Shown: piece by piece, positions 2,452 to 42,400 of the stretch
Position numbering within the stretch: the first letter of the stretch is position 1
How the letters are laid out: the number at the start of each line of letters is the position of its first letter
NCBI GenBank assembly: GCA_963693365.1
Contig: CAVNZM010000003.1
Coordinates: 13,173,252-13,237,251 of the forward strand
DNA length: 64,000 nt
Direction: 5' to 3'
Origin: Amoebidium appalachense
Lineage: Eukaryota; Protista; Ichthyosporea
Translations under genes and position numbers: made by a program
The notes under the pieces: model-generated
What the model saw: only the letters and a program-made list of their open reading frames with translations
Databases searched by the model: none
What the model was told of the DNA's origin: nothing

Positions 2452-2490
2452 GGAGAGAAAGAGAGAGAAAGAAAGAGAGAGAGAGAGAGG
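2293..2490. repeat. (GA)n-rich microsatellite
   Basis: Directly visible. Confidence 0.9.
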
Positions 2491-2897
2491 GAGGGCACGG
2501 TTTAGAGCCTCATTGTGTGTGTGTGAGAGAGAATTTCCACAATGTACATGTTTTATGTGTGACTCCGACTTTTGTGTCCGTAAATCAGCTAGACGTTTTA
2601 TCAAGTGATGTATCATGTTTTTTGTGTCATTTGTGTGTCATGCCATGTTCATGTCATATAATCAGTTGTACGGATTCTAGCACCTGTTACATGTACTTGT
2701 GAGTAGAAGTTTCTGTAGAGTATGGGGGCGCCATTAATGGTATTGTATATACATGTACTGTAGACCATCTGTATACGCGTACGTGCAGCAGTGCCACGTC
2801 TAATTAATAAATATTAGCATGTATCCCCCCCCCCCCCCCCCCGCCCCCCCGCCCCCCCCCCGCCCCCCACCCCCCCACCCCCCCCCCCCCCCCGCCG

Positions 2898-2932
<35 letters not shown>

Positions 2933-7392: not shown

Positions 7393-7427
<35 letters not shown>

Positions 7428-7540
7428 GCCCAAGGGAAGGGATAGGAACTCGTGGACCCAGGAGGGGAAGGGGCAGGGCTCCGGTTGCAGGGAAGGTCGG
7501 AGTCGTCGGGCCCGGGGAAGTTGGTTACGAGAAATGGCAT
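6330..7540 (-). CDS. Tyrosine recombinase (ORF3) of Ngaro copy 1; frame break in poly-G near 7400
   Basis: Catalytic signature LLRSGE...SKTD...GHSLRIGGAT...LGRWSSDCFLIY. Confidence 0.9.
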
Positions 7541-9121: not shown

Positions 9122-9162
<41 letters not shown>

Positions 9163-9278
9163 CAGGGGCCCCGGGGGGTTAGAGTAGGGCAGCTGGGCCC
9201 AAGTGAGGGTTGGCAGGGAGGGCAGCGGGGCCCTGTGCGGGGGAATGTGCCCGAGCACGCGGGGGTGTGGGCGGACAC
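7425..9278 (-). CDS. Reverse transcriptase/RNase H (ORF2) of Ngaro copy 1
   Basis: KYRRIHHLSWP, ADVQAAFR, LPFGLKSSP, HYVDD, TDAAG, ELLAI, CDN, NHLADAISR. Confidence 0.92.
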
Positions 9279-9552
9279 AGCGGTAGAAGAAGGGGGGGGA
9301 GGGAGTGCTAGGTGAGTGTAAGGGGGGGGAGGCTCGTGGGATGGGGGGGGGGAGTAAAATTATGTGCAGTGGCCAGAATAAACGTCTTTGTATAGGGACA
9401 TTTATTCTTGACGCGCGCGGGCGCCGTAGTTGGCCTGCGAAATTTTGTACTCAGCCCTATTGGCCCGTTCTCCCGAGCTCCGTTTCCCTGTACTCGTGTG
9501 TCCTAGCTCCTAACCCCTATGTTCTAGCTGTGTGTGTGGGTGTGCGCGTAGA

Positions 9553-10730
9553 CTAGGCATTGTGCTTGCAGTCTTTGCGGGGGTGTGTGCCAGAGCAGAG
9601 CGGGCACACGTGGGAGAAGGGGCAGGGCTGCTTAGCGCAGGACCGACCGTTAATGTGGAAATTCCTGCAGTGCGTCGCGGGTAGATCCACGGGTCGGGCC
9701 GGTTTTGCCGGGCCGGGTTGCGGGCCAGGGCGGTTAGGGGTGTGACCCCCGCCGGGCTTGTGGGGCGGCTTAAAGCCGTCAAGACCACAGCCGGGCTTGG
9801 GGTACATGGGGCAGGCCGCGCTGGGGTGGTCGGGGAAGCCACAGCGCTGACATGCGTCCTGGATGAGCAGAGTGGGTGGCAGGAGGAGATCCTGGTGGAG
9901 TTGGGCGAGCAGGTTGGGGCACTCGATCGGAGCCCGACCCTGCTGGTGGGCCACGGTGCGGGCGTATACGTCATAGTTGTGGATCTGGGCCCACGGGTAT
10001 CGGGTGCTGAGGCGAGTGATGTGCTGAGTCCAAAGTACGTCTTTGTCCGTGGGAAGGCCGAGGTGGTGCTTGGCGGCCATGTAATGGGTCCAAGCTTGGA
10101 TCCAAATGACGAGTGAACGCAGGGGAACGGGTTTGTCTTGGCGAAAAGTCTCGATGCTGCCGTCGTCGGCCATGCGCAGATGCTGACCTTTCTTGGATGG
10201 GGCCAGGAGGGCGGCGGGGGTGAACTTATACAGGTCGACGAAACGATTGGCGCGCAAATCTGCCAGCACATCCGCGGGGGGAAGCGGGAGTGTGCCCGGC
10301 TGAATGTCGCCAGTGTTCTCACCTGTGATGGGGGGCGCGGGCAGGGCAGGCAGGTCAAGGTCAGGGCCGAGATGCAGCCCCGGGGAAACCTCCCCCGGGC
10401 CGGGTGTGGAGGGGGCGCGGCGGGGGGCGCGGGAGGGTCGCGGTTGGTGAGAGCAGCCAGGACGCCAGCCATCTGGGTGCTGATGGCGGTGAGGGCGGCC
10501 AGGACGGCGTCTTGAGAAGTCATCTGCGGGGACGGCGGGGCCTGAGGGGGGACTTCAGGAGTGGAGGGGAGAGTAGCCGGCGGGTCCGGGTCCGTGGTGG
10601 TATGGGCCGCTGGAGGCGCGTCAGTGTCCGCGGGAGCGTTGGTCAGCCTGTGGCGGAGGTCGCTGCGGGTCAGGCGCTTAGGTGCCGCGGCAGGGGCGGC
10701 GGCTGAGGCCTGGCGCTTTTTCGGCGGCAT
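9553..10730 (-). CDS. Gag-like ORF1 of Ngaro copy 1 (frameshift near 10400 relative to copy 2)
   Basis: Nearly identical to the intact ORF1 of copy 2. Contains CQRCGFPDHPSAAC knuckle and CRNFH...C...CPFSHVCPLCSGTH zinc fingers. Confidence 0.8.
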
Positions 10731-11109
10731 GCTGACCGGCGTAGGGAAAGATAGGGAGAATGAAAAGGAATATATAGCTGTAAGGCTGTGGATGCTAAAC
10801 ACAGAAGATGTGTTTGTAGCTTGCTGATCTGCTAAAAACTGTCGTGCTTATATACCTAAGCCTACCGATCTGAGCCAATCAAAAATCGATCTAGTGATAT
10901 GTGAAATCTGATCCGAGCCAATCATAACTCGGTCTAGTGATCTGTGGTATCTGATGTTTTGACTGGCTAATAGGTGCCCGTGTGCGGGCAGCCAACCGCT
11001 AACTGCTAAAACACGAAATGAAGCCTACATGGTTATGTTGGTATCGAACACCCATCCTACGTGTTTACCCAGAAAAATATTTATGTCAATAATTTCCACA
11101 AATAAAACC

Positions 11110-14680: not shown

Positions 14681-15338
14681 GTACAAGTGCGAGTGCGAGT
14701 GAGCCTATGCCTGCACACATTTTGTGTGTATGTGGGTGTGTGTGCATATGAGGTACATCGGAGCTAATGCGTTTGCGCATATGTGTACGTGTGGGGCCTT
14801 GATTTTTGGGTTGGTGTATATGTTTAAGGAATGAGTGCCGTGTCCGTTTCCACGGCAATGAATGCCGAGAGGGAGAGGGGGGGGGGAGGTATATGCGTTA
14901 GAGAGGGGAACTTGCCGAGGCAAAGGAATTCAGAATCATATACACAAAAAACATAAAGGCATAAACCAGTAAATAAAAATTGTTCAGGCAAGAGATACTT
15001 ATATAGAACCCATTGGGAGGATGGCAGTTGAAGCAGGTAAAAGCTTAAGAGCCACGTAGAATACTAACACGGTTCAAAGGCAGAGTATGCGAGATATACA
15101 AATAAAACATACACCTGACGAAGGGAGGGGGGAGGGGGGGTTATTTAGAACCCCAAAATGAAGACCAGTACGCAGAAGGGGAGGGGAGGGGTGAAGAGGG
15201 GGAGCTTAGGAAGAAGGCAGGAATGATTGCAATAGGCAGAAGAGTGGAAACGGGGTGGGTGTTGGAAGATGGTATCGTTATCCAGTCCGATCGCATGAAT
15301 CAGATCATGATCGGCTGGTGGCCTGCGAGATCTTAACC

Positions 15339-15411
15339 GATCTCGTAGCTCAGTTGGTAGAGCACTCGACCGGAGATAGAGGGGTCGCGGGTTCAAATCC
15401 CGTCGGGATCA
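15339..15411 (+). tRNA. tRNA-like gene in 5' LTR (anticodon loop CCGGAGA, nominal GGA, short variable loop; probably non-decoding)
   Basis: Cloverleaf: acceptor GATCTCG/CGGGATC, D stem GCTC/GAGC, T arm GCGGG-TTCAAAT-CCCGT. A and B boxes present, TTTTT 3 nt downstream. Confidence 0.75.
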
Positions 15412-15708
15412 TCTTTTTCTCATCCTCTTCTCGCTGGGGTAAAAGCCAGCACGCCTTTACTGGCGTCATCACAACCATCGGCAGTGGTTAGGTTGTGATC
15501 TCAAGGCTAGCAAGATCGCTAGTCTCTGCACCAGGACAAAATCCAAAATGGTAGCATGAACAGAGGTTCAGTGGGGACTGAGGGGGCAGTCCACCCTAAC
15601 CTGATTCTGCGATTCGTCCTGAGTGGGGATGTTGGAAGATGGTATCGTTATCCAGTCCGATCGCATGAATCAGATCATGATCGGCTGGTGGCCTGCGAGA
15701 TCTTAACC

Positions 15709-15781
15709 GATCTCGTAGCTCAGTTGGTAGAGCACTCGACCGGAGATAGAGGGGTCGCGGGTTCAAATCCCGTCGGGATCA
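15709..15781 (+). tRNA. Identical tRNA-like gene in 3' LTR
   Basis: Exact copy of 15339-15411, offset by 370 bp. Confidence 0.75.
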
Positions 15782-16157
15782 TCTTTTTCTCATCCTCTTC
15801 TCGCTGGGGTAAAAGCCAGCACGCCTTTACTGGCGTCATCACAACCATCGGCAGTGGTTAGGTTGTGATCTCAAGGCTAGCAAGATCGCTAGTCTCTGCA
15901 CCAGGACAAAATCCAAAAGTGGGTGGGTGGGTGGGGGGGGGGGGGGGGGGGGGGGGGAAACTAAAAATGTTTGCCGCGAACATCAGGACTGCAACAACTG
16001 GATGCCAGCAGTCATCAAAATCGATAACTGCTGAACGAGGGAGAAAGCGGGTGGTGGTAGCACAAGGGAGGGGGACAGACACAAAGCAATCAGCAGCCAG
16101 AAAGAAAAGAGAAAGTATGATGGCACTTCTGTTTGAAGACTAGGCCACCGGGGCCTT

Positions 16158-16549: not shown

Positions 16550-17839
16550 CCCCCCCCCCCCCCCCCACCTCCCTCCCTCCCTCATTCCCTCTCTCCAAAA
16601 CACAAAGCCAACCACATGCAGAGATAAGAATAAAAGAGAAGCATTACGTTTGACTTTCTCCTCTACCCCCTCAAAAAAGTATACACAGTGTGCACGCAGC
16701 ACACACAGAGGCAACCCAGGGGACAAATATCCATTTACGCCTGCCATTACCAGGTTAACCTGTGAAACAAGCAGGAGGTATTCCCCATGAGGCGCGAAAT
16801 AAAAAAAAAAATTGCAGACGCAGGTGCATAGAACATAACAGGCAAGTCTGAATACGCGGGTAGATGACGATGGATAGTGACTTGCAACAACAACAGAACC
16901 AGTTCACCATATACCAACACTCCCAAGATGCAGCCCCAAAATTAACAGTACCATAGTTATCCCGCGAAAAGAACGCCGTCCAAAACAAGGTGTGTGCTGT
17001 GTGCTGAAGAGACCAGCCCTCATCAGCAATTTTGTCGAATCCATCCATAAGCCATCTAAGACGTCAGCATCTAATCAAAGTCATCTACATCCCACCCTTT
17101 AACCCTATCTACCCCATATCCCATCGAAAAGATGTCAGGATATTTTCGGACCATTTAAAGACGACTTTCAAGTTATCATAAAGATGTCTGGAAATTTCCT
17201 GACATCTTTATATACATTTTTCCTGACATCGTTTTCTACACCTAAACCTAACCACTACCCATCCGTAACCCCCCCCAATCCCCACCTTTTCTACCCCTAA
17301 AATATAGGTATCGTAAGATCCTGCACATCAAGACCCTTTTATGTCATCTTTAAGGCCACTTTAAAGAGCTTAAATAAGAAATTAAGGCAACAAACAGACA
17401 TCTAAACGATATCGTTAAAGGGACATCATGTACATTACCTTGTTGCAACGAGAGGTGATTTAGAGGTCTTCATGTTGACTTTTCTGCATCTAAAAAGGCA
17501 CATAAGGAGAACTAAATGTTGCCTTTACAGTATCTCGGGGCATCGGAATCCTTATTTCACGATGCCTTTATGTCATCAAACGGATCTGTTGCCGACCATA
17601 CAAAGATACCTTTTGGATCACTCTACATGATCTTTATTTCATGCACACCGATTCACGACATACACATGTCACCTTTATGTTTACTTTGTGACAACTTGTG
17701 CAGCATAATAAGTCGACAAAACGATCACTACAAGCAATTTAATAAGATCATTTTACTGTATTCTAATCGTCCAAAAATCTATATTAAAGCATCATTTTGT
17801 GCCCCGGTTGATGCCCAGATGATGTCAGTTCCCCCCAGT

Positions 17840-17876
<37 letters not shown>

Positions 17877-18192
17877 CCTTCCCTTTCCTCCCCGTGGCTG
17901 CACAGTGAAGTGTCGTTGACCGTGCTGAACAATCTTTAATTTCTTATGACACGTCCCACTGGGACGTGTCTCCACTCTTTACATCTACGGGATGTCCCAC
18001 TGGGACACCCCTCTACTGTCTCAACTATTCAAAACATTAAAATTCAAGAAAAGAAACACTATAAATTTATGAGAAAAAAACAAACTAAACAAAGTAAACA
18101 AACTTGCAAAATAAAATCCAAAATAATCCCCTACAAAAAAGGGGCAGTACATTTCTTGGGGGGAAGGGGGAGGGGGGGGGGGAGGTGGGGGG

Positions 18193-18984
18193 CTAAGGGG
18201 TGAATTTGGGCTTTTTGTGGGGGCTGGCATGACCCTGTTGGCGCCTTCTCTTCTTGGCCGACCTGGTAAGGGGGGTCTCTCCCTCAGCCTCGTTGAACTC
18301 AGCCGGAGAGTCCTCACCTTGAAACTCAGCCGCCTCCTCCTCCACCCCCTCCACCTGCTGCACGGCCTCGCTGTCACCCTCCGTGCCGCCCACAGCGACA
18401 TCCTCGCCCTCCTTGCCGACCTTGGCCGCGTCCGTCTCGTTTTCACGTTGGTCCACCTTGGGGTCTGGGGCCTCCTTGTGCAGAGACGCGGCCTCCTTAG
18501 CGGCCTGCTCCTCCCGCTCCCGCTCCGCCAGTGCCTCTGCCTCCCTCTCCGCATCGGCCTCCTCCTGCTGCCTGCGCAACTCCTCCCCGGCCTCCCGCTC
18601 GGCTGTCACCATCTGGTCCTTCACGTAGTTGTCGTAGTTTGAGATGTACTGCAGGTAATGGCGGGCACAGAGTCAGATGCTTTACAGAAGTCAGTCTAGA
18701 AAACTTTTTCCAACGATGTGATTGTGTTGTTTGTGTTTTTTTTTTTATGGGGGGGGGGGGGGGGGGGGGGGTTTGCAGATGTGAACAAAGAAGTCTTTTA
18801 TAAAACAGAACAGACTAAATGCTAACTAGCTCGAGTGTCGGCACGCTATAGTGTAGTCAGCCATAATCACACCATAAGGGGGGGGGGGGGGGTAGGAATT
18901 ATAATGAACTTAGCGTAAGTCTCGTGAGCCATGATGAAACACCCCACAGCTCAAGTGTCAGCATCCTATTGCCTAGCCAAAAGG

Positions 18985-19025
<41 letters not shown>

Positions 19026-20614
19026 CCACCAACTTGATGTTGCCTTCGGCCGCAGCACCGTCATAGTTGGGGTCGTCACATTCGAATTTCACGGGGGTCC
19101 ACTTGTTGATGAGCTTGTGTTGGTTGGGGTCTCGCAGCGACACCTCGAAGCAGTTGACGACCAGCCGGAAGAATGCCCTGTGGTCTCTGGCGATATCCTG
19201 CCCAGTGCTTCTTTAGTGATCTGTTTTCAAAAGAGGTAAAGTTCGGAAGGAATACACATAAGGAAGAGAAGAGAAGAGACAGATAATGTTGTCGTCATAT
19301 GGTCTTACTGACATCCAATGGATGTCATTAGGATCATATGACGACAACATTATGGCCCTTCATGATGTAAGAATGTGACCGTAATTCTCTATGATGATGC
19401 TTAAAACTGTCTTTATTCTTGAAATATTCCAAGCATTTGCAGACCTAGGAATATGCATCAATTTTTTTTCGATTCGATTCGTGGAATGTTCATGGTGGAG
19501 GGGAGGGGGGGGGGCGGGGGGGGGGGGGGGGGGGGGGGGAGAAAGCGTTATGCAAGTAAATATATACGATGAAAGCAAGTTATTTGGGAAGTTAAACCGG
19601 TGATCAGAGGAGAACGTGGAAGGGTGAAAGGGAGTGTGTGTGTGTGTATGTGTGTGTACACACGTGTGTTGGTTGAAGAGCGAGTATGTGTGAGTGGGTG
19701 GTGGGCAGGAGGGAAGGGGGGGGGGGGGGGGGGGGGTCCTTTGATGTAGTCTAGACTCAGAATGTGTTGAAAGTGATTTGTTGGGGACATTACATACCAA
19801 GGCAGTCTTGTTGCCAAGGACAAGCCGCACAGCCTTCAATGAGATGCTGCTGAACAGGCGGGAAAACGGCTGGTACCCGAACGGGTTGCCCGTTTCAGGG
19901 TCGACAGAGTACACGCGGCCGCACGGCTGGCCATTCAGCTTGACCTCATCCAGGAGGGCCAGCCACAGCGCTGGTCGCTCATCGGCAGTTGGGCCACGAG
20001 ACAGACAGAGCGCCCCGCCCCCCCCCCCCCCCCCCCCCCCCCCCGGCCCCCACCCGGGCCCCCGGCCCCGCCCCCCCCCCCCACGCCCACCAGTCCTCAA
20101 CACTAGACCCCACACCCAAAGCCCCCAGGCGGACAAGGCCCAGGATGGTCACCCGGCCAGCGCGGGGCAACAGCTGTGCGTAGGCGACCAGCTGTGAATG
20201 TGTGTTTGAATGCAGCAAAAGAAAGGAAACAGAAGCGAGTGGTGGTGAAGCAGGTGGCGGTGGCGTTGTGGGGGGGGGGGGGGGGGGGGGGGGGGGAGGG
20301 GGGGGGGGGGGTTAGTCCATGATTGTGTATTACAGAAGACTGTCAATAAAATATTATATAAATACAATGAAAAGAAAGTATTATTACTACATTACTACTT
20401 GAAACAGCTACATATCTCCATCCCTGTACAAATGACGTTAATGGCATACAAGTAGATTAGAACAAAACAGCTACATATCTCCATCCCTGTACAAATGACG
20501 TTAATGGCATACAAGTAGATTAGAACAAAGTAACCTGTGTGCTAGGATGCGTGTGAGAAGAGTTAAGCCCATTGTCATAGAAGGAGTCCGTTGAGTACGG
20601 AGGGCGGGGGGACG

Positions 20615-20650
<36 letters not shown>

Positions 20651-23566
20651 ATACATCGAGATTGGTCCCAGGTACAACGTACCCAGTCCTCAGGAAGTTG
20701 CGGACGTGCTGGTGGACATTGGACTTGATGGAGGTGATGCCCGTGCGGATTTTGGAGATATACTTCTGTGCGGGATCGCTACGCACACAGTTGCGGATGA
20801 TGTGGACCCACTTGGCCACGGCCTCCTGATTCAGCTTCGCGCTTGACGTCTCGACTTTCTGAAGAACCTCGACGAACTTTCCAGCCAGGTCCCCATCGTG
20901 GGCGTTGTTGATCTGGGGTGACTCCAGCACAAGGTGCTGGTAGATGTTGTGGGTCTTGGAGGACTTTTCCACATAGTCATTCTGACGGTGATGGAAAATG
21001 TTAGAAAACAAGAATGACGATGTGAATAAATCTTGATGGAGCTATAAATCCTCCATGCTGGAAACGTGCTGTAGCAGTTGCTTTGAAATGACCAAGTTTG
21101 AATAGTTCCTTCAGTTTATCCACTTAGACAGAATAAGGGTGTGGATGTAGTAGGGATGGGTTTAGTGCGGGTAGGGGGGGGATGAATGCATTAGGAGGTG
21201 GCAGCATGAGGTGGTGGGATGGCAACAATTCCTCCACAAGGATGAGCTTTGATCACAGAGATTGGTGGGGGGAGGGTTGTTTGAAACATAACTACTACAA
21301 TAGGTAAGAGAAACAAAATCAAAACGAAACCAAGGGAGGGATAGGTTGCCTACCAGGAACTGGGTGGTCTCCTGAAAGGATAATGTCTCGGGGCGTTTCT
21401 TGGAGGGGGAGGGGGTTGGGCGACGGGAAGGGGTGGTAGGGGTGCGGCCCAGCCCAGGCCCAGATGGAGACGGAGGCGGCTCTGGATCATCAAGCACTGG
21501 CAGTCTCGCCTCCTTGCCCAGGAGGGCGCGCAACTGCTCCCTCATGGCGGCGCGACTGTAGGAGCGGATGAGCTTTCGCATCCTCTGGGAGGTGTAGGTT
21601 GGGTGCTTGCCCGACAACACCAGTGTGTAAAAAAGGACCTCGAGCTGATCCTCGCGGTTGTAGGGGCATTCATCCTCGTCGTTGAAGTTGTTCTCGTCAT
21701 CTTCCTGGACTTCTGTGACTGAAGAATAGTAGGACTAATGTTAGTACAATTGTTGGAATCGTAGAAAACTAACAGAAGTGCGGAAACAGGGCAACCCTGG
21801 CAACAGATAGTATTTTCCGGCATGATCCAGATAACTATTGGAGGTCATCATATGACCCAAAACACCACCGAATCCCCCCCTTTCCCAACCATTTCTACAC
21901 CAAAAATGATCTATCGTATGGATATCCCCATCAACATATCGTGGGTGAAGGCAGAGGTTTCGAAAACACAAAAGAACTAGTTGACGTGGACAGGCGAGTG
22001 GGGGGAGCGAGTAAACCACACTAGCAGCAGGTGTGTTTAGAAAGAGTGGAGTGGGTGAAGGGAGAGTATATAAACGGAGGGGGAGGGGGGGGGGGGGGGG
22101 GGGGGGGTTGAATGCAGTCAACAGAACAAAAGTACAAATACAACGGGGAGTGTGGGTGGGTGAGTGCGGGGGGGGGGGGGGGGGGGGTTTGACCAATAGC
22201 AACGGGTATGTTTTCCTGTGTAACTGACTGGAATCCCGCTATCATGTTCTCCACACTAGGCAAGAAGTGTTCCCGACACTCGCACGTGGGATACAGCGCA
22301 AGCTGGTCGATCCAGAGAAAAGTTGCGGTGTTCACTGCTAGCGCAATGTTCGGGCCAACCTGAAAGCCATAGTGAAGCGCTCCAGGTGTGGTTTGTACCA
22401 AGTCGCCGGCGCGCTGTACGACTATGACAGGTGCCAACCCTATGGATGCAAGGTAACGCGGAGACCGAGGGATATAATTTTTGTGCTGAATTGGGTTTCT
22501 GCACGAGCCTGGCAATTCGTTGCGGGCCAGCTGTAAGAGCCGTTTGTACTGGGAGGGAGGGTGGATAAACCACACCTTAATGCCCCACAAAAGAAGGCTT
22601 GCTGAGGCCAGCGCGGCATCTTCAATGTGTGCACCAAACACTGTTAAACCCAAGACAGACAACTGCGCGTACAACATGGCAACATTGATTCCTGGCATTG
22701 TTTCCCCGAAATGATTTCTTCCCAACGGCGTGAAGTCACTGATTGCAGTTACATTGAAAACGCGTTCGTCGAATATTTGATCACCATCCACCTCGACATC
22801 GGATGCATAGACACCACCAACACCTTCGAGGTTTTCCTCAAACAACTGCGCTATCTGCTCACTGCTCATTTCACCCAAACCACTAACATCTTGAGGCAAC
22901 GTTTGACACTTGGAAAGGTCCACGCTGACAGGCTCCCGGCTTATCTCGCACCATGACTCGGACACGCGAGTTACTGTTTGCCTACACGCTTGCTCTTTTA
23001 TCTCTTTGGTCGAAAACTGTTCCATCGCATCACGAAAAGGAACAGGAGGTGCAAACCCCTCTAATAAACAACAGCCCTCCCGTTTCTCTTCAGCACTGTG
23101 CAGGGCACGAAGTGCCTTTAAAGCCTTTTCCCTATCCATGAAAGACGAAGCGCAATGTTGTTTTTATGTTTGAAGATTTTAAAAGTTTTTGATGTTACAG
23201 TGAGAAAGCCTAGGTGAAACTGACAACGAGCACACGCGTAACGACTATTTATGCAGCAGGGGGTGTAAAACACAAACACAACCCACCTTTCCTCTTCGGC
23301 TGCAGCATGGCGAGGGCGGCCGGGGCCGTAACTGAGGTGATGCCTTTGAGGAGAATGCCGACTGACTGCCCAGTAGGGCTTTCAGCCTTGCTGGGATTCT
23401 CCCTGCCCCTACCCCCGGCCTTGCTATCCTTGCCGCCCTTGCCGCCCTTGCCGCCCTTGCTGGCGGCCACGGGCTCGCTGCAGTCCGAGTCGTCGAACGG
23501 CGTCTCAACCTTTTTGCGCTTGGGAAGCTTGGTCGTTGTGGCGCCCATTTTCGCGGTCTTTGGCAT
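18193..23566 (-). CDS. Multi-exon cargo gene of unknown function (basic N-terminus, acidic C-terminus), possibly including the JmjC exon. Exons approx. 23566-23287, [23060-22194], 21718-21354, 20981-~20683, ~20191-20116, ~19985-19798, ~19197-19030, 18649-18193
   Basis: GC3-rich open segments bounded by GT/AG sites and separated by poly-C/microsatellite introns. Several junctions are phase-compatible; the middle junctions are not fully resolved. Confidence 0.6.
19283..19353. repeat. 71-bp near-perfect palindrome (35-bp arms, 3 mismatches)
   Basis: ATAATGTTGTCGTCATATGGTCTTACTGACATCCA-A-TGGATGTCATTAGGATCATATGACGACAACATTAT. Confidence 0.9.
20404..20529. repeat. Tandem duplication of ~63 bp within an intron
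   Basis: ACAGCTACATATCTCC...GTAGATTAGAACAAA occurs twice. Confidence 0.9.
22194..23139 (-). CDS. KDM4/JMJD2-like JmjC-domain (histone lysine demethylase-like) coding segment
   Basis: VYASDV, MPGINVAMLY, FGAHIED, GIKVW, CRNPIQHK, QRAGDLVQTTPGALHYGF, NIALAVN, WID..TCEC align by eye with KDM4 motifs (IYGAD, GVNTPYLY, FAWHTED, PKSW, C..FLRHK, QEAGEF..FP.GYHAGF, NCAESTN, WI..CxC). Confidence 0.85.
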
Positions 23567-24988
23567 GGTGGAGACGTGGAAGGCGTAAGCGCGAGACAGA
23601 GCGATGACGATATGTGGTCATATGGACCACAAAGATGTGTTATGTGGGGTTTCTGTTGCAGTTCCGGTTGGGAAATGGATTGCAATCCTATGCCCATGAA
23701 AAACTTTTAATTGGTTGATCATCGCATAAGCTGAAGCCAATCAAACGCGTAACCCAATCACAGACGGCGAAAACATATGATATGTTTTCCCCCCACACCT
23801 CCTGCAATTTGCTGAGGTTGGACCCTGGTCATCAAGACTTCTTGGCCATAAAATGACAATACAATTACAGCAAAACATTCTGCAGAAACCCGATATTCTC
23901 ACATTTTAAGTGTTTATAAAAAGCCTTAGTTTCAAGTAGAGGCATTTTTTTTCTTGCTTTGTGTCGACGACATCTTTTATCCGCTTGAAATTTGTCAGCA
24001 CCCATAATTCTACTATTACAGTACGTTGTATGTGGGGATCACCATCCGTCTTTCCTGTTTTAACTCGCGCTGAGGCAGAAGTTATAAGAAGCAGACGTGG
24101 AAAACTCAGCATAAGAGATCAATGAAATGAACATAAATATTAAATTACCAGACAATTTACAGTGCAAATTTTCTAGTAATTTCTAACGTCCATTACGAAA
24201 GAAAATAACCAACTTTTGACTTGCACCTGTTTTCCCTGCCGCGCTCAGGTATGTGGGTCTATCGGATGGGAAGGTGTGGACCTGACATTGAGCTTATCGA
24301 GTGGCCGCAGGGAGAATGAGCAATTAATATGATACTATTGGAATATTAATAGTTGAACTCTTCTGCATTTTTTATTGTTTTTTTGTATTTTTTACACTGT
24401 CCACATTTATTGACACTTATATAAGGACCGAACGATTAGGTAGGCTATGCCAGTGGATTCCCATGTTTACGAAGTGCGCGCGCTGCCTAGAGTGGCCACA
24501 TGTATGCATGACAGATCACCAATGATATTTGCAACGCACGCAAACCAAACAACATACAGGTCGTTGAAATCTCCACGGTTGTTCTAATAACACATTCAGC
24601 TTGTATATTTACTTTTAAGTTTGTTATTTTTTATGTCAATGAAATATGGGCATGCGCACCTAGTAGCATCAGTGTTGGACGAAGCAACGCAGCATGATAG
24701 AGTTTATGCCATAGCAGACCAATCGCCGCATTGGAACTATCCGAGTACGTGATAAATGTCCAATCACCACGATTAGGATTATTGGACATCTTCATGTTGT
24801 AGGAAACACCACCCGGGGGTCAACGCGGACTCCACGACATCAGGCAAGGGACATCATGATCAACACAACCCATCCACATCCCAGCTGGACGCACACGAGA
24901 GATCTATCTGTACTATAAAATATATATGTATATACACTGTTTTGATAAACTTTGTGTATGCACGTGATGTGCGGTAAAGCGCGTCAAA

Positions 24989-32359
<7,371 letters not shown>

Positions 32360-33393
32360 AGGTAGCAATGGGTGAGGCTATGCAAATTGTCGTACCCTTA
32401 AAAGATGCCTTTATGGGGACTTTTAGACTACATTTTCCTTTTTTCCCATCTCGATCACCCCCACATCCGAACCTTTTCGGATATCTTTATGAGATCTGTT
32501 TGACAATATGTTGATGTCTGAATCGAGTGCATAATTTTTGTTTTCGGCTTGGATTCACTTAATAATGCCAATCGTTGCCGCATCTATATGTATCTGTGGA
32601 CCCTGTAGTGGCCACATCAGCTAACAAATAACGGAAAGGGTTGTGGCCATTAGTATATCTAGTAACAATGCTGACAGTTACCGTAAGCCTGCCCGCCCAC
32701 ATGGGCCCGTATGGACAACTAAATGACGACTTAGTGGCGGGTTTATGATGTCTCGGACGATGGAATTTGTGCACGCGCACGTGCACCAAGTCTGTGACAC
32801 AAGGGTGTTGCTCCTCTGCCATATCTGATACGACTTCTTTCATGAATCATTCATTTATGCAACAATATTATTATCTGTTATAAATTATATCAAAATATAT
32901 CTTTACAACCAAGGTTGTTGGTAATTATCTACACTAGCCATATGGGTGGAATGGCTGGCTCCCTTCATTTGCACGCCTCTGTCTGGCAACCTTTAAATGA
33001 ATAATATAGGCGTGTTTTATCAAAGTATTACTTTTATAAATCTTATAATTTTCAGCTGTTAATTCCTGAGCCAGTTCTACCACATTAAAGCGTGATCAAA
33101 ATCAATTTTGCGGTCTCCCGGCAAGGATGGTGGTCTGCTTTGCACGCCTCCAGAAAAATTATGTGATCCAATCACATGACGCGAAATCCTATCTCTCAAA
33201 TCCGTGAATATTCATTGGCTTTCATTCCACGCCGCGCACCGCCCGGAGCGGCGCGCGGCGCGCGGAGTCGATCACACTGTGGAAACCATATCATCAGTCA
33301 GTCAGTCAGTAGGTTTGCATATGCTCACGGCCACACATGCACAGTAGCTTTTTGCTGCCTGGCATACTGCTATCCACCAATGATTGAACAAAA

Positions 33394-34632
33394 ATGGCGG
33401 CCCGAAACGTTGCTGTAAATGCACCCGCACATGCTGTTACACAGGGCTCACCATTTACCTCAGAAATGGTGACTGCATACGTTAACTTTTACGTTGAACA
33501 CCATGGTGAATACGTGGCATGTGACGAGGGTTCTAGGCACCCCGCGGGCTTCTGCGCCCTGTGTAATAAACAGGGCATCCGTGTTCTCTCTCAACACCTT
33601 ATTGACGCCCACCGAGATACAATTCGCCATTACACTGGCTACGAAATAGGCATGCTGCTGCAGACCCATCGCGTTCCTAAGGCTGAGCATGCACTAGTGT
33701 GGGCCGTGAGCGATGATTCAGAATATGAACGCGCTACATGGATTGCTTACCGCAAGCGAAAAAACCAGACTGCATACCGCAAAACCGACAAGGGGAGGCG
33801 TACAAACCGCAGTCTACAACTGCTGAAACGGCAAGTGCTCAACGCCTGGGCCTTCCACACTGGCGCCATGGACGGTATTGGCGGGAACATAACACAGCGT
33901 ATGGCCGTCGATACATACCGAATGGTCAGGGATGCTCATTTGGCAGCACAGACAGACATCTCCGCTTCGTTGAACGATGCCCAACAACGATTTATCACTG
34001 CATTCGCCGACCATATGGTTAGGCTCGCAAATATTGCCGTCCTTAACCGCGACACGTCGGCGGCTGTACGACAACTCATGGTGCCAGGGGCCTGTAATTT
34101 TACATGGGAGGAAGATAAAGTTGTGGAGATATCCTTTGAAGAAGTGCGTGGTTGGCACCTTCTCCACTTCGCTACAGGCCAAAAGTACTACACGCGGATA
34201 AAAATGGAAACTGTGCTGCCCAACATTAACGCCGAGATTGACTGGTCGCACCCGGACACAAAAGCCGAGGTAAACAGGGTGTTTCAAAAAAACCTGAAAG
34301 ACAGGGAGCAACAGTTGTGGACGGCAATCTACCAATATATCACAGTCAGAGCCGCCAGTGGGAATTTCCGTTATAGCGACCCAATAGACATGGGAGAATA
34401 CCTCCCTGGGCTAGTTGCAGAGATGGGCGCTTCAATGGACGACATAGAGCTTCCCTCATACCTTGCCATGTGTGGCTTCGATGAGGAAGCACAAGAGTTG
34501 TTTCTCGGACAGGCTGGGCCAGAGCCAGACGAGGAGATGGCGAAGACGCAGAGTAAATTTTCTGTTGTTGATGAGTGGGAGGGGGGCCGTGCAGAGCCTG
34601 TAACATATGGCGCTGTGCCGATGCAAATTTAA
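33394..34632 (+). CDS. Intronless 412-aa hypothetical protein with a C2H2-like finger (cargo of the large element)
   Basis: Long, non-repetitive ATG-started ORF. Contains CALCNKQGIRVLSQHLIDAH, a basic patch RKRKNQTAYRKTDKGRR and an acidic tail. Confidence 0.7.
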   Translation: MAARNVAVNAPAHAVTQGSPFTSEMVTAYVNFYVEHHGEYVACDEGSRHPAGFCALCNKQGIRVLSQHLIDAHRDTIRHYTGYEIGMLLQTHRVPKAEHALVWAVSDDSEYERATWIAYRKRKNQTAYRKTDKGRRTNRSLQLLKRQVLNAWAFHTGAMDGIGGNITQRMAVDTYRMVRDAHLAAQTDISASLNDAQQRFITAFADHMVRLANIAVLNRDTSAAVRQLMVPGACNFTWEEDKVVEISFEEVRGWHLLHFATGQKYYTRIKMETVLPNINAEIDWSHPDTKAEVNRVFQKNLKDREQQLWTAIYQYITVRAASGNFRYSDPIDMGEYLPGLVAEMGASMDDIELPSYLAMCGFDEEAQELFLGQAGPEPDEEMAKTQSKFSVVDEWEGGRAEPVTYGAVPMQI

Positions 34633-35085
34633 GGGACTGCAACCCAACCTTTAGGTATTATTGACATCAAATATATAGTTACTACGAAAAGATACAACTT
34701 ATCGTAGGTTTTATTTGTGGAAATTATTGACATAAATATTTTTCTGGGTAAACACGTAGGATGGGTGTTCGATACCAACATAACCATGTAGGCTTCATTT
34801 CGTGTTTTAGCAGTTAGCGGTTGGCTGCCCGCACACGGGCACCTATTAGCCAGTCAAAACATCAGATACCACAGATCACTAGACCGAGTTATGATTGGCT
34901 CGGATCAGATTTCACATATCACTAGATCGATTTTTGATTGGCTCAGATCGGTAGGCTTAGGTATATAAGCACGACAGTTTTTAGCAGATCAGCAAGCTAC
35001 AAACACATCTTCTGTGTTTAGCATCCACAGCCTTACAGCTATATATTCCTTTTCATTCTCCCTATCTTTCCCTACGCCGGTCAGC

Positions 35086-36255
35086 ATGCCGCCGAAAAAG
35101 CGCCAGGCCTCAGCCGCCGCCCCTGCCGCGGCACCTAAGCGCCTGACCCGCAGCGACCTCCGCCACAGGCTGACCAACGCTCCCGCGGACACTGACGCGC
35201 CTCCAGCGGCCCATACCACCACGGACCCGGACCCGCCGGCTACTCTCCCCTCCACCCCTGAAGTCCCCCCTCAGGCCCCGCCGTCCCCGCAGATGACTTC
35301 TCAAGACGCCGTCCTGGCCGCCCTCACCGCCATCAGCACCCAGATGGCTGGCGTCCTGGCTGCTCTCACCAACCGCGACCCTCCCGCGCCCCCCGCCGCG
35401 CCCTCCACACCCGGGGAGGTTTCCCCGGGGCTGCATCTCGGCCCTGACCTAGACCTACCTGCCCTGCCCGCGCCCCCCATCACAGGTGAGAACACTGGCG
35501 ACATTCAGCCGGGCACACTCCCGCTTCCCCCCGCGGATGTGCTGGCAGATTTGCGCGCCAATCGTTTCGTCGACCTGTATAAGTTCACCCCCGCCGCCCT
35601 CCTGGCCCCATCCAAGAAAGGTCAGCATCTGCGCATGGCCGACGACGGCAGCATCGAGACTTTTCGCCAAGACAAACCCGTTCCCCTGCGTTCACTCGTC
35701 ATTTGGATCCAAGCTTGGACCCATTACATGGCCGCCAAGCACCACCTCGGCCTCCCCACGGACAAAGACGTACTTTGGACTCAGCACATCACTCGCCTCA
35801 GCACCCGATACCCGTGGGCCCAGATCCACAACTATGACGTATACGCCCGCACCGTTGCCCACCAGCAGGGTCGGGCTCCGATCGAGTGCCCCAACCTGCT
35901 CGCCCAACTCCACCAGGATCTCCTCCTGCCACCCACTCTGCTCATCCAGGACGCATGTCAGCGCTGTGGCTTCCCCGACCACCCCAGCGCGGCCTGCCCC
36001 ATGTACCCCAAGCCCGGCTGTGGTCTTGACGGCTTTAAGCCGCCCCACAAGCCCGGCGGGGGTCAAACCCCTAACCGCCCTGGCCCGCAACCCGGCCCGG
36101 CAAAACCGGCCCGACCCGTGGATCTACCCGCGACGCACTGCAGGAATTTCCACATTAACGGTCGGTCCTGCGCTAAGCAGCCCTGCCCCTTCTCCCACGT
36201 GTGCCCGCTCTGCTCTGGCACACACCCCCGCAAAGACTGCAAGCACAATGCCTAG
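35086..36255 (+). CDS. Gag-like ORF1 of Ngaro copy 2
   Basis: Uninterrupted from MPPKKRQ; CCHC and CCCH-like zinc fingers. Confidence 0.85.
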   Translation: MPPKKRQASAAAPAAAPKRLTRSDLRHRLTNAPADTDAPPAAHTTTDPDPPATLPSTPEVPPQAPPSPQMTSQDAVLAALTAISTQMAGVLAALTNRDPPAPPAAPSTPGEVSPGLHLGPDLDLPALPAPPITGENTGDIQPGTLPLPPADVLADLRANRFVDLYKFTPAALLAPSKKGQHLRMADDGSIETFRQDKPVPLRSLVIWIQAWTHYMAAKHHLGLPTDKDVLWTQHITRLSTRYPWAQIHNYDVYARTVAHQQGRAPIECPNLLAQLHQDLLLPPTLLIQDACQRCGFPDHPSAACPMYPKPGCGLDGFKPPHKPGGGQTPNRPGPQPGPAKPARPVDLPATHCRNFHINGRSCAKQPCPFSHVCPLCSGTHPRKDCKHNA

Positions 36256-36537
36256 TCTACGCGCACACCCACACACACAGCTAGAACATAGGGGTTAGGA
36301 GCTAGGACACACGAGTACAGGGAAACGGAGCTCGGGAGAACGGGCCAATAGGGCTGAGTACAAAATTTCGCAGGCCAACTACGGCGCCCGCGCGCGTCAA
36401 GAATAAATGTCCCTACACAAAGACGTTTATTCTGGCCACTGCACATAATTTTACTCCCCCCCCCCCATCCCACGAGCCTCCCCCCCCCCCCTTACACTCA
36501 CCTAGCACTCCCTCCCCCCCCCCCTTCTTCTACCGCT

Positions 36538-36652
36538 GTGTCCGCCCACACCCCCGCGTGCTCGGGCACATTCCCCTGCACAGGGCCCCGCTGCCCTCCC
36601 TGCCAACCCTCACTTGGGCCCAGCTGCCCTACTCTAACCCCCCGGGGCCCTG

Positions 36653-36686
<34 letters not shown>

Positions 36687-38370
36687 CTGCCGGGATCTCC
36701 CCAAGGGTACACCACCCTTGCTAACCACCCCCTTCCCCCGAGGCTCAGACCCGGAGGCCCGCCCGCTGCCCCAGCACCACATTGACACCTCCCGCCTCCG
36801 GGAACTGCTGGCCTCCTACCCGGACCAACCATTCGCCGCACAACTCCTCCACGATGTCGAATTCGGCGTCGACATCGGCTATCGCGGCCCCTCCACCTCT
36901 CGGGTGGGCCCCAACCTACCCACCACCCCGGAGGCAGCTGCCGCTATCACGGTGGATATTGCCAAAGAAGTCGCCCTCGGCCACCTGCGCGGCCCCCTCT
37001 CCCCGGCCCAATTCTTTGACGAATTTCCCGTCCACCGTTCCTCCCCCATCGGCGCCGTTACCAAGAAAGGGAACCCCCCCAAGTACCGTCGAATCCACCA
37101 CCTCTCCTGGCCCCGGGGTAGCAGTGTCAATGACAGCATCACCTACCCCGACGAACTTCAGTACATTCGCGCCCGGGATGTCACCCAACTCATTCTCGAC
37201 GCAGGCCCCGGCTGCTACATGGCCGTGGCAGATGTGCAGGCTGCCTTCCGGCACATGCCCATCCGACCGGAAGACCACCACTTAATGGCATTCAAATGGC
37301 AAGGGCATTTTTACGTTGAAACCAGACTGCCCTTCGGCCTGAAATCTAGCCCAGCCATCTGGGAACGGATCGCGGCCACCCTACAGTGGCTGGCACACCA
37401 GCACGGTATTACCCTCATCCGCCACTACGTAGACGACTGGATTATAGTCGCCCCCACACAAGAGCAGTGCCAACGTCACCTATCCACCTTCCTGCAACTC
37501 TGCCGAGAGCTGCACATTGCCATCTCCGAAGACAAGATGCAGGGCCCGGCTACCCGTGTCGTCTTCATCGGTATCGAATTCGACTCCATCGCCATGGAGG
37601 CACGAATCCCGGCTTCCAAGCTCTCGGACCTACTCGACCTCACTTCCCACCCAAAGCCCACCATCACCATTCGGGACCTCCAGTCCCTCCTCGGCAAACT
37701 CACCTGGTGTGCCCAGCTGGTTCCCCCCGGGAGGGCCTTCTCCCAGCGCCTATGGGCCCTTCTCCGGACCCACCCACACCTTGCCGGCCACCACCACATA
37801 CGACTGACTGCTGCCGCCCGGGCCGACATAGCCGAATGGCACCAGTTCCTCACATCATGGAATGGGGTGCACCTCATCACACCCCCCACATACACCACCC
37901 TGGCCACTGATGCTGCCGGATCGGTGGGTCTAGGTGGCCACTGGCTCGACCAATGGTTCTTCATGCCCTGGTCCCCCTCCACCCAAGCCCTCTATGCTCA
38001 TGAGGGTAAACTCGGTTCTTCCGTCATCGAACTCCTGGCCATCGCAGCCGCCGTGGCCCTCTGGGCCCCCTCCTGGTCCACCCACCATGTCCGTATTTTA
38101 TGCGACAACACGGGTGCTGTGTCTGACCTGCACTCCCGGTCTTCCCCCCACCCCGTGATGGCCAAACTTATTCGGTTCATCACCCGCATGGAAATGCAAT
38201 ACCAATTTACGTTACAGGCATCCTACCTACCAGGACCCCTCAACCATCTGGCCGATGCCATTTCTCGTAACCAACTTCCCCGGGCCCGACGACTCCGACC
38301 TTCCCTGCAACCGGAGCCCTGCCCCTTCCCCTCCTGGGTCCACGAGTTCCTATCCCTTCCCTTGGGCTAA
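36538..38370 (+). CDS. RT/RNase H ORF2 of Ngaro copy 2 (start uncertain)
   Basis: YVDD catalytic motif; TDAAG/CDN/ADAISR RNase H motifs. Confidence 0.92.
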
Positions 38371-39454
38371 CCCCCCCCCCCCCCCCCCCCCAGATCTCCC
38401 GTTCCGGAGCAACACTGGCAGATTGGCCCCCCACTTTGCTCCGGCCGAGCTGCTTCGAGCCACCACTACCCTGCAGGAATGCCAGGCCCTGAGTCTCAAC
38501 CTCGACTCTCGGGCCTTTTACTCCCGGGTGCAAAAAGTGTTCATCGATTTCTGTGTGGCATCTCGGCTGCAATCCTCCTCCGGGTCCTCCCTCCCGGCCT
38601 CCCCACACACCGTGCAACTTTTTCTCGCCTGGTGTGCCCAACGAGGGGTACAGGCCTCTTCCTTAACCGGCTACAATTCGGCCATCACCAGGCTCCACCT
38701 CGACATGGGCCTCCCTGCTCCCTACCCCCACGACAAGTCTCTGGCCTGGTTCCTACGGGGGGTGGGCCGATGGCAGCTTTCTCACAACATCCGACCCCGC
38801 TCATCCACCAGGGAACCCCTCCTCCCCTCCCACCTCCGCCTACTCCATGGCCAGTGCCCCACCAAGGCCTCCTCGGCCAATCTCCGGCTATGGACGGCCC
38901 TCATCGTCGGTTTCTGTGGTCTCCTCCGTTCAGGGGAATTTACCTCCAAGACCCTGACTTCTTTCGACCCGTCCCGTCACGTTAAACGGAAGGACGTGAC
39001 CTTCAGCTACACCCCCACCGGTACTTTGTCCCATGCCACCCTCCACCTGCCAACCTCTAAGACGGATGTACAGGCCCGAGGTGTCAACGTCACCCTAGCT
39101 GCCCTGCCCCTCACCCACTTCTCCCCAGCCCATCTCCTCCGGCAGTTCCTGGATACAACGTCCGGTCAACCCGACGACCCCCTCTTCAGTCTCGGTGGCA
39201 TCCCCTACACCAAGAGTGCTTTCTCTGCCGATTTCCGTGCCCTCCTCTCCCGGGCAGGCCTCTCACCCTCCCGGTTTGCCGGACACAGCCTCCGCATCGG
39301 GGGGGCCACAGCACTGGCTGAGGCCGGGGTCGACGACTCCCGGATCAAACAACTCGGCAGGTGGTCCTCCGACTGCTTCCTGATCTATACCCGACTTCGT
39401 CCGGCCTCCATTGCTGCCACCACCACACGTGTATTCGCCTCTATTCTTAAGTGA
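38255..39454 (+). CDS. Tyrosine recombinase ORF3 of Ngaro copy 2, overlapping the end of ORF2
   Basis: R-K-HxxR-W-Y signature present. Confidence 0.92.
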   Translation: MPFLVTNFPGPDDSDLPCNRSPAPSPPGSTSSYPFPWANPPPPPPPDLPFRSNTGRLAPHFAPAELLRATTTLQECQALSLNLDSRAFYSRVQKVFIDFCVASRLQSSSGSSLPASPHTVQLFLAWCAQRGVQASSLTGYNSAITRLHLDMGLPAPYPHDKSLAWFLRGVGRWQLSHNIRPRSSTREPLLPSHLRLLHGQCPTKASSANLRLWTALIVGFCGLLRSGEFTSKTLTSFDPSRHVKRKDVTFSYTPTGTLSHATLHLPTSKTDVQARGVNVTLAALPLTHFSPAHLLRQFLDTTSGQPDDPLFSLGGIPYTKSAFSADFRALLSRAGLSPSRFAGHSLRIGGATALAEAGVDDSRIKQLGRWSSDCFLIYTRLRPASIAATTTRVFASILK

Positions 39455-42400
39455 AACCTTTGGAGCAAGCATACTGCTCTCGTGCCGTGGTTTACAACCA
39501 TTGCAGGTTCACTTTCGTCCAAGGGGATGTCCCCCTAGAGGCAACACACGTCCCGGAGTAGTTTTTCATAGAGGTTTTATTTGTGGAAATTATTGACATA
39601 AATATTTTTCTGGGTAAACACGTAGGATGGGTGTTCGATACCAACATAACCATGTAGGCTTCATTTCGTGTTTTAGCAGTTAGCGGTTGGCTGCCCGCAC
39701 ACGGGCACCTATTAGCCAGTCAAAACATCAGATACCACAGATCACTAGACCGAGTTATGATTGGCTCGGATCAGATTTCACATATCACTAGATCGATTTT
39801 TGATTGGCTCAGATCGGTAGGCTTAGGTATATAAGCACGACAGTTTTTAGCAGATCAGCAAGCTACAAACACATCTTCTGTGTTTAGCATCCACAGCCTT
39901 ACAGCTATATATTCCTTTTCACCCACCCACCTACACCCACACACAACCCCCATTGATCCACACATACGTGCTGTTTTTTCACGGGGCGAAGACTTCCCCC
40001 GTTTTTTGGGCACATGGACCTCACGGATCAATAAATTGATGACTGGGGGCTTGCCGTGGTTTACAACCATTGCAGGTTCACTTTTGTCCAAGGGGATGTC
40101 CCCCTAGAGGCAACACACGTCCCGGAGTAGTTTTTCATAGAACTTCATCTCCTCTGAAATATATTTGATAAATTTTTAGGCAAAAGCAACCATAGCATCA
40201 TCACCTTCCGCGAGCTCGCGAGCCTGGTCCAAAAGATGCCTCGACCCACCCAGGACCGATGACCACCAAAACACATCAAAGGGAAATTCAAGACACATAA
40301 GTATATATAGATTCACTTCAGACAACTAACGGCTCCTGAAAAGTGCATACAAGGACCACTTAAAGACCCTAGAGAGATGCTGTGGACTCCATTCTAGTAT
40401 GAGAATTGCATCCAGCAACATTATAGCATCTATATATGCCTATCATGTGCACCGGGTAATCCACAAACCATCTATGACGTCGTGGATGTGGACCACGCAA
40501 AGATCACATAGAGACCCTAATAGATATCATAAAGTGCACATCTGTGCCTAGAACAGGGATAAATCAGGAATGATATATAATATGCACCAGAAATACACTT
40601 AGACATCTGAGGGTACCTAGGGGGATGGATGGGAAAAGGATAGGATATTCAGAGATCTGTAATACCACATCATCAACACCATAGGTCCACAGTAGATGCC
40701 TTCAAGTGCACGGAATCGATCGAGCCAGGGTCAAAAGATTCACAAACCCATCCCAGAAACCCATGATGACCATCCGAAGGCATCTAAAAGACCACGTAAA
40801 GGCCATATAAGATGCAAATATGTTTTCCCTCATGACAACTAAATGTTCCTAAAAGGTTCATTAACAGACCACTTAAAGACGTCAAAAAGATGCTGTATAC
40901 CAGGAATAGCGTCCAGCAACATTAAAGCAACCATATATGCCTATCATGTGCACCACCCAATCCACATACCATCTATGACGTCGTGGATGAGGTCCATCTA
41001 CAAGAGCACATAAAGACACTTTGTCGATCATTAAAAGTGCATATGTTGTGCATATAACAGCGAAAAAACAATATGGATCATATAAAATGCACTAAAACTA
41101 GTCTTGGACATCATAGGGGACTTAGGGGTAGAAATGGATGGGAAGAAAATATGATCATATAAAGTGGTCCATATAATGTCTATGTGCACCGGAAATAAAC
41201 TAGAAGTACACTTGGACGTCCTGGAGTACTTAGGGTGTACTTTGGGATGGGTACAAGAAAAGAGCATTTAATGTGGTCTTTAGATGGTCCATATCACCAC
41301 CCAAACCCCACCAAATTGTGTTTGGAAAATTTTGAACATCGGGGCATTTAATATGCATTTAGGATGGGTTGTAGATCATTTCATGACACCATAGTAGATG
41401 CCTTGCGGTGCTGTTCTGGATGATGGATGATATCAAGTCCCCTTTATCCCCTCCTGGACATCATAGATGAGTTATGGATAGTGGCCATCCAAATTGTTTA
41501 CGACCCCCACATCCCATCTAGATGTCATCATGTAGGTAGGTTGTGGTGGATGTGTGGGGTGGATATGGTGGGAGGACCCCCAAAAGGTGTCCTGGATGGG
41601 ATCCGGATCGCCGAACAAGATTGCTGATGCTGTCTGCTCCTTACTCGTTTTTGAAGCGCATGAGCGAGTGTAAAATATATAGACAGAAAGTCGACTGGGA
41701 AAACCTCCGCAAGTAATATATGGAACCGTTATCCTGTTTCGTTCTAATCGTCCTTTTGTGATTACTTTGTGATAAGCAGATGTTATCGAGTTATCAGTTT
41801 TGATTGGCAAAAACGTTTCTGCCGCTATGTCCCACAACTAGTCCCACAATCAAACCCTGCAATCGGGGTGATGGGTAGAAGCCGTTTTTTACCTTCCTGA
41901 GCAGAAAGCCTTCCATTTTTGGTTATTTCATCTTAGCTTTTTCTAGCTAATGGTGCTGTTACTCCATTGGTGGGATTTACTATAATGGGCGACCAATCAG
42001 GTAATCCCCCCTTTCCCCCTTTCTCCATTTCTCCCATCTCCCGGCCCACTCTCTTGGCTCGTTCTCTTCCTTTGCACGCTTCCCTTGACCCGGCTCGCAT
42101 GCTTCCCTTGACCCGGCTCGATCTCTCTTCCCGCTCTTCCTCTGACCCGATATGTTGCCCCTGCACTCCTCTGCACCTCTCTCCCGCCATCCAATCACCC
42201 GCGTGCATATTCCTGCTCTTTCGCCCCGACTATCCCACATACTTCCCTGGCCAATCAACGCACAGTAGGTGTCCCCCCTAGGTGTGTGTCTCCCGCACTA
42301 TCCGGCAAGTATCCACGCAAAAAAATGTAAACCCCATGACATGATTTTCCGCCATAAACCCATAATGGGGTTGACCAACCGATGCGCGCGGCTTTCACAT

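Follow-up and report, generated by a model that had tools for sequence, protein, structure and literature searches.

Histone demethylases of the KDM4 (JMJD2) family require their JmjN domain for activity; KDM4A-C also carry PHD and Tudor domains, and KDM4D and KDM4E consist of the catalytic core only. A zinc motif inside the catalytic domain is a mark of the family (PMC3308871). Among transposons, PlavakaB, which is defined by CATCA..TGATG termini together with a 2- or 3-bp duplication, includes elements of Agaricus bisporus and Gymnopus confluens that carry TET/JBP genes as proposed anti-silencing cargo; the VANDAL/VANC anti-silencing proteins and the SET-carrying HarbingerS and MuDR elements are further transposon regulators or enzymes of chromatin marks (PMC12730594). 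In Amoebidium, giant-virus insertions hold divergent KDM4-like paralogs without PHD or Tudor domains, for which a role against heterochromatin has been proposed (PMC11244446). Erasers of DNA methylation in transposons and KDM4-like genes in viral insertions are, that is, already in print. The main text of PMC12730594 makes no mention of JmjC, and the Plavaka repeats of PMC11244446 are described there with tyrosine recombinases, not with JmjC. In a literature that was mainly open-access we found no report of a JmjC or KDM4 gene within a DNA transposon; supplements may list such elements.

Here we describe an intronless KDM4-like JmjC open reading frame (ORF) in 64,000 nucleotides of Amoebidium appalachense (assembly GCA_963693365.1, contig CAVNZM010000003.1, positions 13,173,252 to 13,237,251; hereafter the window, in whose coordinates positions are given). 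The ORF sits, as cargo, in a complete 24.6-kb PlavakaB element, within the first intron of a second gene, gene A; an earlier note on this DNA, made from the sequence alone, had noticed the ORF but overlooked this setting. The element shares with the TET/JBP-bearing PlavakaB elements the end motif, the 2-bp duplication, a 2-oxoglutarate/Fe oxygenase as cargo and a proposed escape from silencing, whereas its cargo is of the histone-demethylase type rather than a DNA oxidase and is nested in an intron (PMC12730594). VANC regulates in a sequence-specific manner and SET writes marks, whereas the cargo here is a predicted eraser. With the viral KDM4-like genes it has in common the divergence, the lack of PHD and Tudor domains, a selfish carrier and the proposed action against heterochromatin; there, in contrast, the vehicle is a virus insertion and the genes are multi-exon (PMC11244446). 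Compared with the KDM4/JMJD2 enzymes themselves, the ORF most resembles KDM4D and KDM4E, namely in a predicted fold that extends over KDM4A residues 23-350, in the iron triad, the 2-oxoglutarate Tyr and Lys and the zinc site, in Ala and Val at positions 288 and 289, and in having neither the PHD nor the Tudor domains of KDM4A-C. It departs from the family in a JmjN that is predicted as shortened and is undetectable by sequence, in the changes N198S, N280Q and E287L, in its location in a transposon and inside an intron, and in that its activity is a predicted one. We put at about even chances the reading that this cargo is a likely active demethylase of histone H3, most likely at K9me3/2, which helps the element to escape silencing.

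Results

The element and its boundaries

The two ends of the transposon pair in inverted orientation at 14 of 16 bases, with two mismatches, the right end lying at 41614-41629 (Table 1). This right-end match is the unique best in the window and was equalled in 2 of 200 shuffled windows; the CT at both flanks is a 2-bp target duplication, of a kind expected about once in 16 by chance alone. Because the CATCA..TGATG ends and the 2-bp duplication fit the published definition (PMC12730594), we assign the element to PlavakaB. On the left side, contigs of runs X12 and X13, which come from one sample, diverge from the window at 17021 into two different flanks, and a contig of run X15 begins at 17021. 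A right end near 32550 was considered and dropped; the inverted match there is weak and the duplication absent.

The transposase matches Pfam PF18759 (E = 4e-21 and 2.6e-10), and its spliced model presents two Asp motifs, a CxxC, a His motif and a Glu motif in the expected order. Its intron 1 was observed as a joint from 25549 to 25856 in run X9; the other seven of its eight introns were modelled at GT-AG sites. For the second possible cargo gene, the ORF at 33394, we obtained no Pfam or Atlas match and a single-sequence model with a pLDDT of 34. The retroelement inside the transposon is a later insertion, 98.7% identical to 5645-11109.

Table 1. Features of the element, gene A and the JmjC ORF (window coordinates).
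Feature	Position	Strand	Remarks
PlavakaB DNA transposon	17021..41629	.	24,609 bp; about 19.2 kb minus the inserted retroelement
Left target duplication CT (17019-17020) and left terminal repeat	17019..17036	+	flank change in runs X12/X13
Right terminal repeat and target duplication CT (41630-41631)	41614..41631	-	from the window sequence
Plavaka transposase	24989..32359	+	9-exon model, about 1,040 aa, no internal stop; head to head with gene A
412-aa intronless ORF	33394..34632	+	inside the element; second possible cargo gene
Tyrosine-recombinase retroelement	34706..40141	+	inserted into the transposon, not part of it; reverse transcriptase (RT) and recombinase domains
Gene A exon 1	23287..23566	-	93 codons, Lys/Gly-rich, phase-1 donor; X9 joint
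Gene A intron 1, containing the JmjC ORF	21719..23286	-	1,568 bases, GT-AG; one X9 contig
Spacer, exon 1 donor to JmjC start	23140..23286	-	147 bases, no ATG
KDM4-like JmjC ORF, intronless	22194..23139	-	315 codons and one base; first ATG at 23139; core to about 22195
Predicted phase-1 splice donor and poly-C tract	22170..22193	-	end of the JmjC core
Gene A exon 2	21354..21718	-	end or divergence of X16 and X19 contigs at 21718
Gene A exon 3	20655..20981	-	X19 contig covers 20658-20981; donor at 20655 from sequence
Gene A exon 4	19798..19993	-	X19 contig, joint to 19196
Gene A exon 5	19030..19197	-	X19 contig and sequence
Gene A exon 6	18193..18648	-	acidic helix, basic tail, stop

The window is eukaryotic and rich in repeats. 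Four of its tyrosine-recombinase retroelements, all bearing split direct repeats, are close relatives of one another (5645-11109, 34706-40141, 44342-48236 and 62265-64000) and presumably of the Ngaro type. A tandem array in the last transposase intron (29516-31408) has a 372-base unit in 5.1 copies with 97% matches. The subterminal regions of the element (40321-41155 and 17100-17700) are rich in GATGTC/GACATC-like motifs, candidate binding sites, and hold a 335-base internal duplication of 74% identity. Elsewhere, two 292-base copies at 15257-15918 are 99.7% identical and each include a tRNA-Ser(GGA)-like sequence, possibly as a tRNA-derived repeat; spliced-looking ORF pieces with a cysteine-rich, CXC-like stretch occupy 476-2052; and a satellite of about 11 copies of a 183-base unit lies at 59398-61631.

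Gene A and its first intron

Gene A has six exons. A GT-AG joint from 23287 to 21718, found in run X9, skips the whole JmjC ORF and is in frame; it comes from one contig of this one run, with 27 bases on its shorter side. The next joint, from 21354 to 20981, was found in X9, X16 and X19, and a 1,537-base X19 contig connects the five exons that come after the ORF and shows two GT-AG joints. No run is on record as RNA. X9 was taken as RNA, though its label was a guess of DNA, because two further GT-AG joints were seen, and we infer the same for X16 and X19. Contigs of X12 cross two gene A introns unspliced. X16, from the same study as X9, includes little of the element, and its spliced contigs represent another copy; since a different exon stands upstream of 21718 in this run, other copies of gene A appear to be transcribed with another first exon. 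The spacer between exon 1 and the JmjC start is not an assembly slip, because contigs of X9 and X12 carry the same sequence gap-free.

Gene A matched no Pfam family, and a word-index search found no relative of exon 3 among longer proteins. Exon 1 (23288-23566) has a repeated KGG motif, and we take its Lys/Gly-rich sequence to be loosely histone-tail-like. In X19, exon 2 shows a 5-base insertion and a 2-base deletion (21524, 21691), the same deletion being present in X16. At the acceptor of exon 4 no AG directly precedes 19993 in the window, and between exons 3 and 4 the X19 contig has 17 unplaced bases, beside poly-G tracts (19994-20200).

Relatives of the JmjC ORF

Pfam detects a JmjC domain in residues 166-270 of the ORF (E = 5.3e-14). 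Among proteins of solved structure the closest are human KDM4C, D, B and A (E = 1e-17 to 8e-16); a further KDM4-type chain follows at 5e-15, and KDM5-type chains at 8e-9 or weaker. Identity to KDM4 is about 25-34%. In a search of 50% clusters, from which the best 150 of 1,428 matches at E ≤0.001 were taken, the closest relative among the matches listed is the protein P0003, with 38% identity (E = 3.8e-34; a repeat-inflated record was set aside), and the earlier note was right to call the ORF diverged. A word-index search with the ORF found no relative; with a three-row profile, P0003 was the sole match. No relatives were found in IMG/VR (four queries), in metagenome contigs queried with the ORF itself, or in phages. 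Weakly grouped relatives of the ORF led to three metagenome loci, in which nothing matched the transposase, gene A or the ORF at 33394; metagenome locus L001 lies amid kinase-type host genes. A further divergent KDM4-like ORF, with an 823-aa frame and a partly changed zinc site, occupies positions 1009-3480 of metagenome contig L002.

In a tree of 149 rows, made without P0002, P0007 and P0152-154, the ORF pairs with P0003 (SH-aLRT 94) among long branches beyond the main KDM4 group. A quick tree of 47 hand-picked rows has the two in an unresolved four-row set with support 85, likewise on long branches beyond that group. Neither tree had a KDM5 outgroup or a host KDM4, and the placement of the ORF with P0003 carries no starred support in the trees of search matches.

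Predicted fold and domain content

An AlphaFold2 model of the ORF, made with a 92-row alignment, has a pLDDT of 83.5, and its best Foldseek matches are KDM4A. With a second aligner, model residues 1-315 superpose on KDM4A 23-350 over 281 residues (Z 22.9, rmsd 3.6 Å). Structure prediction and superposition on KDM4A had been proposed as a check, and on their result the ORF is predicted to cover the whole KDM4A catalytic core.

The N-terminus of the model comprises a confident helix (residues 2-18) and strand (23-26; pLDDT 88-92), with residue 1 on KDM4A residue 23 and the first JmjN strand missing. Pfam gave no JmjN match in the ORF, and against a home-made JmjN profile the N-terminus scored within the range of shuffled sequences, of which 16 of 300 and 64 of 300 did as well; profile comparison carries homology back to residue 53. 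Because the model matches the whole KDM4A core, and despite these negative sequence tests, we predict a shortened JmjN-like segment, although the model may be biased at this end, since 36 of the 92 alignment rows carry JmjN. PHD and Tudor domains had no match in the ORF or in the gene A exons that can be joined to it. Where the earlier note saw no clear JmjN, PHD or Tudor domain, the absence of PHD and Tudor stands, and that of JmjN stands for the sequence but not for the model. Nor does 'minimal' describe the protein well: it spans the full KDM4A core, as KDM4D does, and may splice onto some 500 more residues.

Ligands and pocket residues

The ligands of iron, 2-oxoglutarate and a KDM4-type zinc site that had been read from the sequence prove correctly assigned, as they occupy conserved columns of the 92-row alignment. 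H171, E173, W190, H256 and N270 are invariant; the ORF also keeps Y111 (79 of 91 homologs), K188 (90/91), C213 (89/91), H219 (88/91), K220 (86/91), C286 (89/91) and C288 (90/91). H171, E173 and H256 constitute the HxE...H iron triad on the JmjC double-stranded beta-helix, Y111 and K188 are the equivalents of the 2-oxoglutarate binders Tyr132 and Lys206 of KDM4A, and C213, H219, C286 and C288 form the Cys-His-Cys-Cys zinc site. For the iron and zinc ligands and for G170, S196, N280, E287 and N290, the KDM4A numbers are those that we assume. The remaining numbers follow PMC9712658 (Y132, Y177, F185, N198, K206, W208, K241) and PMC3308871 (D135, E169, Y175, S288, T289, R309, I71, N86, I87, Q88).

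The methyl-lysine pocket is retained (G150, Y157, S179, A268, N270, K220 and D114). Asn198 of KDM4A is replaced by Ser181, so the Asn-to-Ser change noticed earlier in the SINY motif is real; among the matches listed, 134 of 148 homolog cores have Asn here and 13 have Ser. In KDM4A, Asn198 lines the 2-oxoglutarate/inhibitor pocket (PMC9712658). Because of this position, and because the methyl-lysine pocket is kept, Asn198Ser alone implies no new specificity, and the suggestion of an altered specificity is not supported on this ground. Two other near-invariant positions are altered, N280Q (N in 142 of 148 cores among the matches listed) and E287L (E in 137 of 148), and three residues are inserted ahead of the HxE strand. 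Together with Ser181, these departures count against the reading that we favour.

Residues that contact the H3 tail bear on whether the target might be another one: H3K36me3 or H3K27me3, a protein other than a histone (the gene A product or the transposase, for instance), or methyl-lysine that a non-catalytic protein would bind. The H3K9-binding E169 and Y175 are P and M in the ORF, residues that are common in homologs (79 and 28 of 148, respectively, among the matches listed), and R309, linked to K36 binding, is retained. N198S in the 2-oxoglutarate pocket and the Lys/Gly-rich exon 1 of gene A can be counted on the same side, as can N86S, I87R and Q88E, which are probable; these last calls are unsure, because the region that bears them (55-71) is modelled at a pLDDT below 50. 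Against another target, the equivalents of KDM4A D135, K241, Y177, G170, S196 and N290 are all kept, and the ORF has Ala at position 288, as in KDM4D/E, followed by Val at 289. A different target or mode of action seems to us somewhat unlikely, and H3K9 remains the target that we favour.

How a JmjC message could be made

The reading frames, compared by eye, exclude that exon 1 splices in frame into the JmjC ORF, whose start comes after the exon 1 frame has met its stop. Since exon 1 cannot splice in and the spacer has no ATG, the ORF must use its own start. No TATA-like start was found in the 147-base spacer. The JmjC message would be a minor one and would either begin within intron 1 or retain the spacer. 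One X9 contig covers 22198-23316, and with it the JmjC ORF, gap-free. Mean depth in X9 is 358 for this contig, 96 for the remaining intron and 8,889 for the skipping joint, figures by which the parts can be ranked poorly; the excess of the JmjC contig over the neighbouring intron is a hint.

At its other end the ORF meets a GT at 22193 that is followed by a C run, a pattern shared by 5 of the element's 13 modelled donors versus 23 of 583 GT sites. This predicted donor has phase 1, like that of exon 1, and falls at the point where the model ceases to match KDM4A. Its use would join JmjC to gene A in one open frame, in phase with exon 2, and the protein would have about 800 residues. Read without splicing, the frame runs past two poly-C tracts to a stop at 22021. 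A JmjC-to-exon-2 joint is not among the listed X9 joints, from which rows at repeats were dropped, and 32 unplaced bases at the end of the X9 JmjC contig fit the splice and a poly-G tract alike. We lean towards splicing of JmjC to exon 2.

The protein P0003 may have the same layout as gene A and its JmjC ORF. It shows first a basic stretch and a tripeptide that could reflect a phase-1 donor, then 45 codons that lead to a Met and the JmjC core, and finally another such tripeptide; six tripeptides of this kind occur in its 520 residues, and the layout was judged from the protein alone. Exon 1 of gene A gave no significant alignment with the N-terminus of P0003 (best E = 0.76). That alternative first exons form a switch, by which gene A would begin either with a basic tail or with a whole H3K9 demethylase, joined in frame to one common body, is a doubtful reading.

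Copies of the ORF and the case for a passenger

Diverged copies in X9, compared by eye over 19 codons of two loose contig ends, show 9 silent changes, 7 replacements and 3 identical codons, with no stop among them. A third loose end, which covers the codons of the first once more, has 4 silent changes and 5 replacements. Near-identical copies differ at three positions, all of them replacements (V127I, A158V and I217L), of which I217L shifts to the family consensus, and the aligned part of the minor copies holds 1 silent and 2 replaced codons. The earlier note had called the enzyme selected. The in-frame paralog fragments, in which silent change exceeds chance in a count that is not equal to a dN/dS estimate, argue weakly for this; the near-identical copies, differing by replacements only, argue against it.

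A host KDM4 copy could have landed in intron 1 by accident, to be spliced out, present in precursor RNA only and of no benefit to the element. The deep X9 joint that skips the ORF would fit such a history, as would the JmjC start behind the exon 1-frame stop and the replacements between close copies. Third-position GC, 0.52 in JmjC against 0.76-0.79 in gene A, is as expected of a later arrival, but transposase exon 1 (0.58) and the ORF at 33394 (0.54) are similar to JmjC in this respect. Against it, no ligand has been lost at an identity of about 30% to canonical KDM4, the diverged copies stay in frame with many silent changes, and the ORF contig is deeper than the adjoining intron contig. With these observations, an idle passenger is quite unlikely.

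Discussion

An origin in an endogenous giant virus, the region itself being viral or the gene having been picked up from such an insertion, is very unlikely: 39% of giant-virus insertions do contain JmjC-only KDM4-like genes, and giant repeats flanked by Plavaka are described in one genome (PMC11244446), but the region is bounded by transposon ends and a target duplication and has a spliced transposase, no viral marker was found among the ORFs scanned against Pfam, the four IMG/VR queries found no relative, structure matches to viral proteins are weak (best TM 0.38), and the published viral copies are multi-exon whereas the JmjC ORF has no intron. The captured gene by itself may have a viral source.

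The reading that we prefer, an active demethylase carried as PlavakaB cargo, supposes the capture of a KDM4 core by the element, which has preserved this core intact and transcribes it as a minor form. Its product, a predicted Fe/2-oxoglutarate enzyme, would act on methyl groups of histone H3; by family precedent the substrate is most likely K9me3/2. Removal of such groups from the element's own chromatin would allow escape from silencing, to the benefit of the element.

With an intact KDM4-type gene between the defined ends of a DNA transposon, alongside an open transposase, one can test in a small system whether an element removes H3K9 methylation from itself. The enzyme is a single assayable domain of 315 residues, and the family has both near-identical and diverged copies for an analysis of selection. 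Its place in an intron hints at how the dose of an eraser that could do harm may be held down. Were the first-exon switch true, and were gene A to bind the element, the outcome would be a self-targeted eraser of heterochromatin, in a layout kept in a relative that is 38% identical.
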